From an uncultured Ruminococcus sp. (GTDB lineage: Bacteria; Bacillota; Clostridia; Oscillospirales; Ruminococcaceae): 64,000 bases of DNA. The stretch spans positions 27,081-91,080 of the forward strand of contig ONMB01000012.1 in assembly GCA_900318825.1 (NCBI GenBank). Reading direction: 5' to 3'. How positions within the stretch are numbered: the first letter of the stretch is position 1; each line of letters begins with the position of its first letter. The notes beneath the pieces were generated by a model. The model ran no database searches, was not told where the DNA came from, and worked only from the letters and a program-made list of their open reading frames with translations. Positions 34,442-38,295 of this stretch are shown here, in pieces. Position numbers and translations under genes: made by a program.

Positions 34442-35293
34442 ATGAGAATGAAAAAAGGTTCGAGTATTTCCGGTTACGGTGCCGGAAAGAAAGTTATGAT
34501 ATGCAATGTTAAACGCGGTGAGACCAAGAGAATTATCGCTTATATGGAAAAGCTCGGCATAGAGGTCGTTACCTGCGAAGCGGAGGATAAGGATATCTAT
34601 CACCGCATAGATGTTGAACAGCCGGACCTCTTCGTACTTCAGTCGGTAACAAATTATGTCTATGAGCTGCGCTTTATGAAGTACCTCAACGACGAGTATC
34701 CCGCACTGAACAAGATGTGTCTTGTGTTTGAGCGTATGAAGTGGATAAAGGACTTCTTCAGGACCGCCGGCGCAGACAGAGTCTTCAATATCTTTGATGT
34801 ACACCCGGCTATAACTGCCGTTACCATAGGCGAGACTGCCGAACAGCCCAAGGGTAGTGTGAGACCGGATATTGCTCATTTTATGCGTATATTCGGCTTC
34901 CGTGAGGATACCAAGGGATTTGAGTATCTCATCGACTGCGTTGAGTTAGTTATGCAGGACGAATTCCGTATACACAGCGTGATAAAGGACGTTTACGGAG
35001 CGACTGCTGAGAAGTACGGTACGACCTCGACGAACGTTGACCGTATGATAAGGCATCTTGCAAACTGTGCCGGCGACGCGGACGTTATAAGGACGCTCAC
35101 ACGCGGAAGAGCCGACACCCGTATAAGAAACCGCGACCTTATCTTAGAGATCATACGAGGTATGAAAGAGGAGCGTCACACTCCCGTTATCCATAAACCA
35201 GCTTTCCTTGTTGAAGAGGAAAAAGAATTAGAACGGAGACGTAATAAGAAGTGGAAAAAATGTCAAAAATGTCCCTATGCGAAGATATTCTGA
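34442..35293 (+). CDS. Spo0A-like regulator: degenerate receiver plus Spo0A C-terminal DNA-binding domain
   Basis: KGFEYL...IKDVYGATAEKYGTTSTNVDRMIRH resembles the Spo0A effector HTH; receiver PDLFVLQ lacks the phospho-Asp. Confidence 0.72.
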   Translation: MRMKKGSSISGYGAGKKVMICNVKRGETKRIIAYMEKLGIEVVTCEAEDKDIYHRIDVEQPDLFVLQSVTNYVYELRFMKYLNDEYPALNKMCLVFERMKWIKDFFRTAGADRVFNIFDVHPAITAVTIGETAEQPKGSVRPDIAHFMRIFGFREDTKGFEYLIDCVELVMQDEFRIHSVIKDVYGATAEKYGTTSTNVDRMIRHLANCAGDADVIRTLTRGRADTRIRNRDLILEIIRGMKEERHTPVIHKPAFLVEEEKELERRRNKKWKKCQKCPYAKIF

Positions 35294-36924
35294 GCCAGAT
35301 ACGCCAGCCTCTGTGGGAAAACTGGTATATCAAGGAAAAGATAGGCTCAGGAGCTTACAGCGCAGTATATAAGGTAACTGCTCAGCGTATGAACCGCACG
35401 GACGTTTCAGCGCTGAAAATAGAGCCTATCGTCCCGGACGAGGCTACTGCCGCTGACGAGGAGAAGCGCAAGGTTTTTCTTGAAAAGCAGAAGGCGCTCG
35501 CTGAGAATGAGTCAACGATAATGTATTCGCTGAGAAACTGCCCGAATATAGTTACATATGAGGACGAGGACCTGCGTGAGCTCATAATCGACGGCAAACA
35601 GGTCGGCTACTATTTCCTGATACGAATGGAGTACCTGAGCTGCCTCAGCGACCTGCTGAAAAAGCGCAAGTATGAGCTGACTGAGGACAATATCCTCAAC
35701 CTTGCCTGCGATATCGGAAAGGCTATAAAGACAGCTCATGATCAGGGTATCATACACCGCGACCTCAAGCCCGGAAACTTCTTTATCGACAAGAACGGAG
35801 TCTACAAGCTCGGTGACTTCAATATTTCCAAGCAGACCGAGGATTCGCGCGATATTGCCGGAACAAAGAGCTACTTTGCTCCGGAGGTGTATTTTGCGCG
35901 TCAGAGCGGAAATTCCTACACCTGTCAGGCTGATATCTACTCATTCGGCATATGCCTTTACCAGCTTATGAACGACCTCTATCTTCCGTTTGAGGAGGGG
36001 GCTAACGCTACAAAGGCGGTTATGCGCAGAATGACAGGGGAACAGCTCCCGCCGCCTAAAAGGGCTTCTGAGGAGCTCTCACGCATAATCCTCAAGGCGT
36101 GTGAATTCAATAAGGAAAAACGCTACTCCTCGATAGACGAGATGCTCTCAGACCTCAAGGCACTGAAAAAGAAGGACTCTGCTCCGGCAGAGGCGCCCAA
36201 GGCATACGATCCGACAGAGTATGCTGTTCCTGAGCAGGCAGCTTTTCCGAAATCAAAGGAATTCAATCCGATACCGCTCATAGCTGTCATAGCTATACTG
36301 CTTATAGCAGGTGCAACGGCACTGTTCTGTATGAAATTCCTCGGTGAAGACTCCGGGGACAATAATTCATATTCGTCGGTGCGTCACGTTCCGATAAATG
36401 AGATCTCGCTCAGTGCCGATACGATCGACATTGACGTATGGGAGGACGTTTCTATCACAAGCGTTGACTGTCCTGATACAGTAAAGGTCGATAATGTAGG
36501 TTCGATGTTCGGGTACAAGTACGACACCACTCTCCGTGCCGACAACAGCGATCTTGTTGTCAAGGTAAACGAGGATTCTACCGAGAAGCTCTGCGTGGAA
36601 GCTCCGCCTGAGCTGATAATCAAGGCAAGGCGTTCCGGAGGCGAGTACGTTGTCACGATCGACGCTGCCAAGGTTGCCGATCAGGAAAAGGACTATACTC
36701 TGACGCTCCGCAACGACGACAGCAGCATCAGCCGTAAGCTGAAGGTGAGAGTTCGCAGGATAGGACCTTTCAGGGACGAAGTCAAGCGGATTTCGAGCGA
36801 TCCCGGAATAGTTGAATTCAATGACGACAGCACATTTGTCGTTCATTCGACCGGTACTGTTACAATAGACTGGGTTTACGGCGACAAGGTACTCTACACA
36901 AAAACTGTTACTATCGAAGAATAA
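35251..36924 (+). CDS. Membrane Hanks-type Ser/Thr protein kinase
   Basis: IGSGAYSAVYK, ALK, HRDLKPGN, DFN, GTKSYFAPE, DIYSFG; one TM; extracellular beta-rich region without PASTA. Confidence 0.92.
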   Translation: MEKMSKMSLCEDILSQIRQPLWENWYIKEKIGSGAYSAVYKVTAQRMNRTDVSALKIEPIVPDEATAADEEKRKVFLEKQKALAENESTIMYSLRNCPNIVTYEDEDLRELIIDGKQVGYYFLIRMEYLSCLSDLLKKRKYELTEDNILNLACDIGKAIKTAHDQGIIHRDLKPGNFFIDKNGVYKLGDFNISKQTEDSRDIAGTKSYFAPEVYFARQSGNSYTCQADIYSFGICLYQLMNDLYLPFEEGANATKAVMRRMTGEQLPPPKRASEELSRIILKACEFNKEKRYSSIDEMLSDLKALKKKDSAPAEAPKAYDPTEYAVPEQAAFPKSKEFNPIPLIAVIAILLIAGATALFCMKFLGEDSGDNNSYSSVRHVPINEISLSADTIDIDVWEDVSITSVDCPDTVKVDNVGSMFGYKYDTTLRADNSDLVVKVNEDSTEKLCVEAPPELIIKARRSGGEYVVTIDAAKVADQEKDYTLTLRNDDSSISRKLKVRVRRIGPFRDEVKRISSDPGIVEFNDDSTFVVHSTGTVTIDWVYGDKVLYTKTVTIEE

Positions 36925-36936
36925 AGGAGGCAAGCT

Positions 36937-38295
36937 ATGTCCGACAAAAATAATCTCAACAACGGTGACATTTACGGTGCGCGGAATTCCGGGAGAGCTC
37001 CGGAGAGAAACGATAGCTTCGGGAAGGTCGCACCTGATAAGGAACCGGCTTATTACGAGGAGACACAGCTCTTTCAGCGTCCGGTAAGCCAGCAGCGACC
37101 GGCACCGGAAAAGCCTTTACATAAAAGCTACCATCAGAACGGACAGAGCCAGTATGCGCAGGGCGGCTACCCTCAGAACGGACAGAACCAGTACGCGCAG
37201 GGCGGCTACCCTCAGAACGGACAGAACCAGTACGCACAGGGCGGTTATCCGCACAACGATCCGGATCCTTACAGAAAGGGCAGCGGAAATCCCTATCTGA
37301 ACGACCGGCGTGAGACGCTGCACAACGAGCCTGTGAACGATAAGAAGAGGCCGGCAAAAAAGAAAAAGGGTATGAAGGCTTCTACTGCTGTACTTATCGT
37401 GGTCACACTTGCAGTAGTTCTGTTCGGATTAGTTCCGGCAGCGATCATATTCTTATTCAAGGACAAAGATGAAAGCAGCAGCAAGTCATCGGCTGCCGTT
37501 ACAACTTCCGCTTCAACGGAGGAGTCCACAGAGGACGATACCGAAGCGGAGAATACTACCGAGGAAGAAACGGAAGAGACTGAGCAGGAAACGAAAATGG
37601 AGTTCGTTGATATGCCTGACGTAGTGGGACTCGATTACCGCACAGCTGAAATGAAATTGAAGGAAGCCGGTCTGAGAGCCTACTGCAAGAACGAATACAG
37701 CAGCGATGTTGACAAGAACGAAGTCATTTCTCAGGACGTCAAGCCCGGAGTCAAGACCTCGCGCGGCAAGCTGATAACGCTGAAGGTATCTCTCGGTCCC
37801 GAGCCTACAAAGGCTACACAGGGCGAACAGCGTGAAATCCCTGATGTCAAGGGAATGAAATTGGATAAAGCGATAGAAAAGCTCGAGGCGGAAGGATTTA
37901 CTTATTCTGTTGTCTATGTTCTGTATGAAGAAACTGACGGCAATGATGCTGTTGATACAGTGGCATCTCAGTCACCGTCATATGGCATCAAACGTGAAAA
38001 GGGCGCAAAGGTGAAACTGACCGTTTATAAATACGCCGACAAAACTCCGGTAGCGACCGGAAAGGTCGTGACTGAGGAAACGGAGCTTAATGTCCGCAAG
38101 GAGAATAATACGAATTCAGATGTCTTAGGAAAGCTGTCAAAGGGTTCAAATGTAGATATAATCTATGAATTGGACGGCTGGTATGCTATCTTGTATAACG
38201 GTGAGGTCGCATATGTATCAAAGGACTATGTTGAACTCCCTGAAAACGTAAATAAGATCCCTCAGATGTATCGTTCTCCTAAATTGATATCATAA
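36937..38295 (+). CDS. Membrane protein with two PASTA domains and a C-terminal SH3b domain
   Basis: TM; MPDVVG...VISQDVKPG; IPDVKG...VASQSP; LNVRK...GWYAI.YNG..AYVSKDYV. Confidence 0.85.
   Translation: MSDKNNLNNGDIYGARNSGRAPERNDSFGKVAPDKEPAYYEETQLFQRPVSQQRPAPEKPLHKSYHQNGQSQYAQGGYPQNGQNQYAQGGYPQNGQNQYAQGGYPHNDPDPYRKGSGNPYLNDRRETLHNEPVNDKKRPAKKKKGMKASTAVLIVVTLAVVLFGLVPAAIIFLFKDKDESSSKSSAAVTTSASTEESTEDDTEAENTTEEETEETEQETKMEFVDMPDVVGLDYRTAEMKLKEAGLRAYCKNEYSSDVDKNEVISQDVKPGVKTSRGKLITLKVSLGPEPTKATQGEQREIPDVKGMKLDKAIEKLEAEGFTYSVVYVLYEETDGNDAVDTVASQSPSYGIKREKGAKVKLTVYKYADKTPVATGKVVTEETELNVRKENNTNSDVLGKLSKGSNVDIIYELDGWYAILYNGEVAYVSKDYVELPENVNKIPQMYRSPKLIS
37135..37251 (+). repeat. Three 39-bp tandem repeats (QNGQxQYAQGGYP)
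   Basis: Units start at 37135, 37174, 37213. Confidence 0.93.

Follow-up and report, generated by a model that had tools for sequence, protein, structure and literature searches.

A Spo0A-type pseudo-receiver gene, a membrane Hanks kinase gene and a PASTA-SH3b gene side by side in an uncultured Ruminococcus

Results

A three-gene unit and its signals

The window analysed here, 64,000 nucleotides of contig ONMB01000012.1 (assembly GCA_900318825.1) from an uncultured Ruminococcus sp., contains three closely packed genes (Table 1). Gene 1 encodes a Spo0A paralog devoid of the phospho-accepting Asp, gene 2 a membrane Hanks-type kinase with an extracellular domain of its own, and gene 3 a membrane protein bearing two PASTA domains and a bacterial SH3 domain (SH3b). 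We tentatively read the operon as a kinase and a wall-binding partner that are not obligate to each other, with a regulator recruited in one lineage. Because dockerin-bearing genes surround the locus, among other grounds, we infer that the host is a cellulolytic Ruminococcus.

Genes 1 and 2 overlap by 43 nt when counted from the GTG start of gene 2 and by 34 nt from its alternative ATG, which gives the 554-aa form recorded most often; the coding sequence of the gene 1 C-terminal tail thereby runs over the start of the kinase gene. Gene 3 follows after 12 nt. An earlier note on this DNA had placed the packed genes between one promoter and one terminator, and the open reading frames, a promoter-like site and flanking hairpins were indeed found. 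The promoter-like site resembles what we take to be the general sigma-A consensus; 13 such sites occur in 6.5 kb compared with 7.0 ± 3.0 in shuffled sequence, so that a single site is weak evidence, and it marks the start of the unit without being specific. Comparable sites lie upstream of the operon in G121, G149, G096, L288 and L291, and less clearly in G116 and L317 (G000 is the genome of the window, other G labels denote further genomes, and L286–L291 and L317 are metagenome loci). The upstream hairpin is retained in G121 and G014.

RNA sequencing runs cover small shares of the window (0.07–0.18). Contigs from two studies span the junction of genes 2 and 3 (36805–37079 and 36878–37028), and one contig covers the overlap of genes 1 and 2 (35139–35306; depth 2–4), which gives a weak hint of joint transcription. 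All three genes have a ratio of nonsynonymous to synonymous substitution rates (dN/dS) of 0.06–0.16 relative to close relatives. The possibility of a horizontal island was rejected, as the G+C content at third codon positions is 0.53–0.59, near the 0.56–0.67 of neighbouring genes.

Table 1. Features of the operon and its surroundings (positions in the window; aa, residues of the encoded protein; E, expectation value; pLDDT, predicted local distance difference test score)
Feature	Position	Strand	Remarks
Terminator-like hairpin ending the upstream GH9-CBM3-dockerin gene	34329–34358	+	−16.7 kcal/mol, z −4.4, U-run after
Promoter-like site, sigma-A type	34386–34415	+	TTGCTA-18-TGnTATAAT; 10/12 match, extended −10
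Gene 1	34442–35293	+	283 aa; ribosome-binding site GGAGG ahead of 34442; alternative ATG 34421
Gene 1 receiver and Spo0A-type effector domains	about aa 17–132 and 141–244	+	profiles and predicted structure
Gene 2	35251–36924	+	557 aa counted from GTG; alternative ATG 35260
Gene 2 kinase domain and single transmembrane segment	aa 27–299 and 343–361	+	Pkinase E 4e-38; no PASTA found
Gene 2 extracellular domain	36379–36921	+	about 190 aa; predicted all-beta tandem Ig-like fold, pLDDT 90
Gene 3	36937–38295	+	452 aa
39-bp tandem repeat in gene 3 tail	37127–37258	+	3.4 copies
Gene 3 PASTA domains	37606–37791, 37834–38031	+	Pfam
Gene 3 bacterial SH3 (SH3_3) domain	38083–38235	+	E 4.1e-12
Two-way terminator-like hairpin, gene 3 versus convergent DUF6465 gene	38298–38333		−23.5 kcal/mol, z −5.9, T-runs on both strands
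IreB-like small protein (judged from its sequence)	59379–59624	+	21 kb from the operon, unlinked

A Hanks kinase with an Ig-like ectodomain

Gene 2 is a membrane Hanks kinase without PASTA domains, as had been described. Its motifs are complete (G32/G34, K56, E87, HRDLKPGN 169–176, DFN 189–191 and APE 210–212), the Asn that replaces Gly of DFG being present in 15/15 aligned kinases, and by these motifs it is predicted to be a Hanks-type Ser/Thr kinase. What the earlier note had missed is the extracellular domain. The structural model of this domain matches an S-layer SbsC domain (Z 10.4, root-mean-square deviation 2.2, 83 residues aligned), with many further matches at Z 8–9, as well as Ig-like domains of intimin and LigA; as modelled, the Ig-like fold class is clear without pointing to a function. 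Big_2 was detected in the G096 ortholog (E 3e-4), a profile search of the PDB with the ectodomain gave no sequence match (best E 0.23), and Atlas scores, all below 0.9, serve as leads only. The kinase does not, then, lack a candidate sensor, because it has an ectodomain of its own.

The protein is 31% identical to the genome's own PrkC, which is encoded in an intact prpC-prkC-rsgA operon (G000:C59), and sits on an end branch of 2.95 in a quick version of a large kinase tree that has long outgroup branches and from which 7 short fragments were dropped. Its family is expanded in the genus, often in tandem arrays, and sister kinases carry SH3b, lectin C, DUF5050, Big_2, F5/8 C or dockerin ectodomains. 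FHA-ABC and PP2C genes are neighbours at 28 of the 49 family loci that lack the gene 2-type ectodomain. A search for a fused kinase-PASTA-SH3b ancestor through the 120 best of 3210 longer proteins, 48 of them with a kinase domain, was negative; the best kinase-PASTA protein there scores 107 bits to gene 2, none has SH3b, and the list is crowded by multi-PASTA proteins, which makes it weak evidence. None of the 48 single-chain kinase-PASTA proteins belongs to the family of gene 2. The description of the operon as a 'split PrkC' is therefore unsupported on several counts: PrkC is intact elsewhere, gene 2 is of another family that holds none of the single-chain proteins checked, and it possesses its own ectodomain.

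At L119–L128, tandem arrays of two or three kinases of this family with swapped ectodomains lie beside FHA-ABC, ABC-2 and PP2C genes. One family kinase (G077:C39; L125:9090-10610) ends in a C-terminal dockerin (Pfam E 6e-11), has close relatives in L128, L151 and L161, and could be a membrane kinase able to dock on cellulosome cohesins. A kinase at L184:5001-6734, in a record titled Alistipes, is nearly identical to Ruminococcus kinases, reflecting either a binning error or transfer.

The activation loop of the family reads T/S-x-x-G-T/S, a spacing that presumably matches the phospho-Thr of PKA. Among 79 loops readable by this pattern (9 more were not), the position is Thr or Ser in 72, Asp in 5, Ala in 1 and Gly in 1. 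Gene 2 has Asp201 here, as do in total 5/22 ectodomain kinases (G000, G121, G014, G096 and G116), which form one clade (Shimodaira–Hasegawa-like approximate likelihood ratio support 98) joined by L288, L289 and L317, likewise with Asp. Judging by the residues kept, phosphorylation of the gene 2 loop could still take place through Thr196, Ser199 or Thr205.

A PASTA-SH3b protein that neighbours the kinase

From its N-terminus, gene 3 consists of a cytoplasmic tail rich in Gln, Pro, Gly, Asn and Tyr with an EETQLF motif, a transmembrane segment (residues 153–171), an acidic Ser/Thr linker, two PASTA domains and SH3b. No kinase domain was found by Pfam scan, and the earlier portrayal of an outer PASTA-PASTA-SH3b array on a repeat-rich tail without a kinase was borne out by the domains, the transmembrane segment and the 39-bp repeat. 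Close relatives are 452–541 aa long. An acidic-Thr-x-hydrophobic-hydrophobic motif, which we take to look like an FHA docking site, occurs in 9/16 gene 3 tails compared with 0.4 expected, although the pattern was derived from the same sequences after viewing and kin are not independent. The genome encodes 2 FHA proteins.

A survey of 161 genomes of the genus, some incomplete, found the ectodomain kinase in 21, one copy each, and the gene 3 type in 24; 26 genomes had matched the latter, with G088 and G007 dropped as kinase-PASTA fusions, and G168 is a contig-end fragment. In 400 genomes of the family (396 from other genera) the gene 3 type was not found at E ≤ 1e-30, the 5 matches covering PASTA only. 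Wherever both genes are held in the genus they are adjacent (13/13 genomes; gene 3 of G121 is cut by a contig end and is whole in L286 and L287). Moreover, the pair occupies five chromosomal sites, whose neighbours were named by sequence look: the GH9/clpB site of the window (G000, G121, G014); one after an EAL-like gene (G096, G116); one in G020 and G146; one in G003; and one beside an iscS-thiI-like pair (G001, G173, G167, G075, G161). At a sixth site, in G162, the kinase is accompanied by what a deletion has left of gene 3. No PASTA or Spo0A-like neighbour was seen at any of the 49 loci of the same kinase family that lack the gene 2-type ectodomain. These data suggest that genes 2 and 3 likely function together.

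Kinase-less PASTA proteins are common. In addition, the genome encodes, at G000:C34:12476-14542, a protein with a Cys-rich N-terminus, a kinase-like domain with HRA for HRD, a Gln/Pro/Gly/Asn/Tyr-rich linker like the gene 3 tail, a transmembrane segment and PASTA. It is likely a pseudokinase and has many longer relatives among the proteins checked for kinase-PASTA fusions.

An Asp-less Spo0A paralog

The Spo0A-type effector ascribed to gene 1 was confirmed: Spo0A_C (PF08769) matches residues 144–212 (E 2.6e-15; 56.7 bits, cut-off 25; profile 1–69 of 104). The Pfam scan gave no receiver match, and the whole-protein score for TIGR02875 (Spo0A) is 48.2 bits, under the cut-off of 200. A family profile built from 26 divergent relatives and free of canonical Spo0A sequences matches the whole of the 1LQ1/Spo0A effector structures (E 1e-21) and also CheY (E 2e-11). 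In an AlphaFold model (pLDDT 81; alignment of 20 rows, 6 of them canonical Spo0A), five strands and five helices precede the effector helices; target template-modelling scores are 0.81–0.87 against receivers and 0.78–0.80 against 1FC3/1LQ1.

At the five catalytic receiver positions (DD, D, T/S, K) that, with the definition of a pseudo-receiver, are given in PMC12632262 (papers are cited here and below for the parts available), gene 1 has N22-V23, Q67, F96 and I117. All canonical residues are replaced, in keeping with the earlier remark that acidic pocket and phospho-Asp are missing, and none of the 26 family members has Asp in the D column or Lys in the K column. By contrast with these losses, the recognition-helix arginines are kept (Arg201 in 25/26, Arg204 in 26/26 members). 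The literature searched named no DNA-contact residues of Spo0A, and we assume that these two read the DNA; neighbouring helix residues differ from Spo0A, and gene 1 is six residues shorter after the helix. Gene 1 as a Spo0A-type pseudo-receiver regulator is thus supported. A pseudogene was rejected, since dN/dS versus G121 is 0.06, indicative of purifying selection. Over longer distances the regulator diverges fast, linked copies being 19–30% identical and their kinases 57–59%.

One family match above 150 bits occurs in 92/161 genus genomes, a count made by hand, canonical-looking Spo0As appearing to score about 127–134 bits. This Asp-less paralog (L249–L278) is roughly single-copy, evolves very fast and, from one member of the genus to another, lies at many unrelated places in the chromosome. 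NCBI names its members Spo0A C-terminal domain protein or hypothetical; a homolog search with the gene 1 sequence alone recovered no other protein, and a search of 50% representatives gave 335 matches, 11 at E ≤ 1e-10. The genome also encodes two closer Spo0A paralogs. Among six canonical-looking Spo0As aligned, the phospho-Asp column is Asn or Glu in four (L002:447-1250, L013, L019 and L007, some apparently beside spoIVB), and in this order of bacteria Spo0A may frequently be activated without Asp phosphorylation.

Gene 1 is intact ahead of G000, G121, G096 and G116 kinases. The three-gene order recurs at two sites (these four genomes together with L286, L287 and L290), regulator and kinase are adjacent in L317, and kinases with gene 1 or a remnant upstream fall within one clade (100/99) that includes L317. 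A single origin of the linked regulators is neither shown nor rejected (approximately unbiased test P values of 0.51 and 0.063). Genes 2 and 3 are accordingly neighbours in other ruminococci too, and gene 1 is intact ahead of 4/21 ectodomain kinases of the genus.

Other features of the window

A division and cell-wall cluster occupies 129–13188 (+ strand), with a PASTA-bearing penicillin-binding protein near 1750–4287. On the minus strand, 38400–39063 holds DUF6465 (Lys/Ala-rich) and HU-like genes, where RNA contigs are very deep and many come from other organisms.

Discussion

We put the probability of a non-obligate kinase and wall-binding partner, with the regulator recruited in one lineage, at roughly 0.45. 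In such an arrangement gene 3 would bind peptidoglycan and keep the kinase where wall is made or cut, likely as an anchor, co-receptor or substrate that is not obligate. The kinase would phosphorylate Thr residues in the gene 3 tail, creating docking sites for FHA proteins. If Asp201 mimics activation-loop phosphorylation, the output of gene 2 would therefore be set by location and partner instead of by autophosphorylation. Gene 1, possibly a substrate of the kinase, would bind DNA without Asp phosphorylation, and phosphorylated Thr residues of its effector domain might modulate it.

A number of observations weigh against this interpretation. Partners are often single: 8/21 kinase genomes lack an intact gene 3 type (seven in one clade, 100/100, plus G162) and 11/24 gene 3-type genomes lack the ectodomain kinase, so that 19 genomes hold only one intact partner, as against the 13/13 adjacency. 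Gene 3 stands without the kinase at the iscS site in G032 and at the G162 site in G013, G129, G077 and G133. Several single-partner genomes are 96–99% complete; several genomes of the survey are incomplete, and two kinase-only ones have a contig end within about 200 nt. G149 retains gene 1 and a two-PASTA gene without SH3b, and the kinase is gone. The tail Thr motif is present in 4 kinase-less copies and absent from the kinase-linked G096, G116, G003, G001 and G173, and L291, within the Asp clade, has Ala at the loop position.

The same holds for the regulator. It is intact ahead of a minority of the kinases, and within their clade it was lost three times: in G014 (99% complete and without a family match at 1e-35), in L288/L289, where the promoter-like site is kept, and in L291, where it is internally deleted. 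Linked regulators split into two groups, one of them sister to unlinked copies. Among the 30 best family loci, a kinase or PASTA gene is the neighbour in 5 and neither occurs within 1.5 kb in 25, even though the profile, built partly from linked copies, favours these. Finally, gene order alone can persist without interaction.

These points feed the strongest alternative, in which the genes share no more than a promoter: the kinase would sense through its own Ig-like domains, gene 3 would be an independent wall-binder, perhaps a PrkC substrate, and gene 1 a single-copy regulator that wanders and came to lie upstream. Every gene persists somewhere without the others, relatives of gene 1 occupy many unrelated sites, the tail motif survives loss of the kinase, PASTA proteins without a kinase are common, and sister kinases bear many different ectodomains of their own. 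It accounts poorly for a pair that has moved together to five sites and is never apart when both members are present, and for the lack of any such neighbour at the 49 sister-kinase loci; we consider it a serious competitor that is nonetheless improbable.

Another alternative is a full cascade, with gene 3 as peptidoglycan sensor, gene 2 as kinase and gene 1 as its dedicated transcriptional output, in effect a PrkC in two chains that feeds into a Spo0A paralog. The three-gene order at two sites, the regulator and kinase of L317 and the way gene 1 overlaps or almost abuts the kinase speak for it. So does residue T220 of gene 1: by residue spacing, T245 of Clostridioides difficile Spo0A would map to the loop after the recognition helix where T220 lies, and this column is Thr or Ser in 8/9 linked or clade-mate regulators, although the register is uncertain, given a six-residue gap on which alignments disagree. 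The column is, however, Thr or Ser in 16/26 family members overall and so not peculiar to linked copies. By analogy with PrkC acting on C. difficile Spo0A, StkP on RitR and the separate sensors of PknG, such a cascade would be plausible; yet in the PrkC and StkP cases it is the housekeeping PASTA kinase that acts, and this enzyme is encoded here too in an intact operon. The ectodomain of gene 2, the spread of the gene 1 family through 92 genomes mostly away from kinase or PASTA genes, its three losses while the pair stayed and the loss of the kinase in G149 with gene 1 and PASTA retained also argue against it, and we regard it as unlikely. Gene 1 as dedicated output, which the earlier note had proposed, is weakly supported, as most family members lie away from kinases and the gene was repeatedly lost from the operon. 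Slightly less likely again is the specific version in which wall-bound gene 3 engages the Ig-like ectodomain of an Asp-preactivated, non-PrkC kinase that phosphorylates the Asp-less paralog; if true, it would mean that in cellulolytic ruminococci a Spo0A-type regulator exchanged its histidine-kinase input for that of a dedicated Ser/Thr kinase.

That gene 1 controls the operon, as a phosphorylation-independent autoregulator or as a rival of true Spo0A for 0A-like sites, and thereby determines how much there is of a default-on kinase, fits the retained arginines, the loss of all five receiver residues and Asp201 in the kinase loop of this clade, but is very improbable, as no TGNCGAA box (defined in PMC4690370) occurs in 34000–34460, helix residues near the arginines differ from Spo0A and L288/L289 keep the promoter-like site after losing gene 1.

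The operon encodes a candidate kinase-regulator pair, for which natural deletion variants of each gene serve as controls. The matter bears on two issues in the literature: the on/off switching of pseudo-receivers is called unresolved in PMC12632262, and PMC9674922 leaves open what Ser/Thr phosphorylation does to Spo0A. A broader by-product is the Asp-less Spo0A paralog in over half of the genus genomes along with the expanded kinase family with swapped ectodomains; should the genes merely share a promoter, the result is a modest gain in annotation.

Comparison with known systems

Taken together, genes 2 and 3 resemble the PASTA kinases PrkC, PknB, StkP and Stk1 (NF033483) in having an inner Hanks kinase, a single transmembrane segment and outer PASTA domains. 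Their matches to NF033483 are partial, reach 132 and 84 bits where the cut-off is 450, and come from separate reading frames. Unlike PrkC, the operon comprises two chains, gene 2 has an Ig-like ectodomain, SH3b is added and the genes do not lie beside prpC/rsgA. Gene 1 shares with Spo0A a receiver fold followed by an effector domain with recognition-helix arginines, and differs in lacking DD, D, T/S and K and in falling under the TIGR02875 cut-off.

Precedents exist for the Ser/Thr-phosphorylated Spo0A paralog that the earlier note had proposed, one in Spo0A itself and one in an Asp-less regulator. PrkC phosphorylates the DNA-binding domain of C. difficile Spo0A, chiefly at T245 (PMC9674922), and StkP phosphorylates the Asp-less RitR in its DNA-binding domain (PMC4601284). 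RitR of Streptococcus pneumoniae is, like gene 1, an atypical response regulator with an Asp-less receiver, but its effector is of the OmpR type and no kinase gene adjoins its own. CD2148 of C. difficile, like gene 2, is a PASTA-less membrane kinase in a clostridial genome with intact PrkC; its gene is monocistronic, several of its catalytic residues are missing and it left Spo0A unphosphorylated in vitro (PMC9674922), whereas gene 2 has all motifs. In Actinobacteria, PknG-GlnX-GlnH provides a Ser/Thr kinase with a separate, co-encoded sensor (PMC6069109). PknG relies on a separate transmembrane protein and an amino-acid-binding lipoprotein, while gene 2 spans the membrane itself and its partner has wall-binding domains.

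The literature searched, which left most subscription journals outside, contained no paper on an Asp-less Spo0A family or on an expanded kinase family with swapped ectodomains. The three-gene combination was not found there either, including the available parts of PMC3533761, PMC4395418, PMC12632262 and PMC4690370, and no Spo0A-type pseudo-receiver is described in those of PMC12632262 and PMC4395418 ('Spo0A' occurring 0 and 2 times). The parts of the operon are already known; the combination and the Asp-less Spo0A family had no counterpart in the literature searched.

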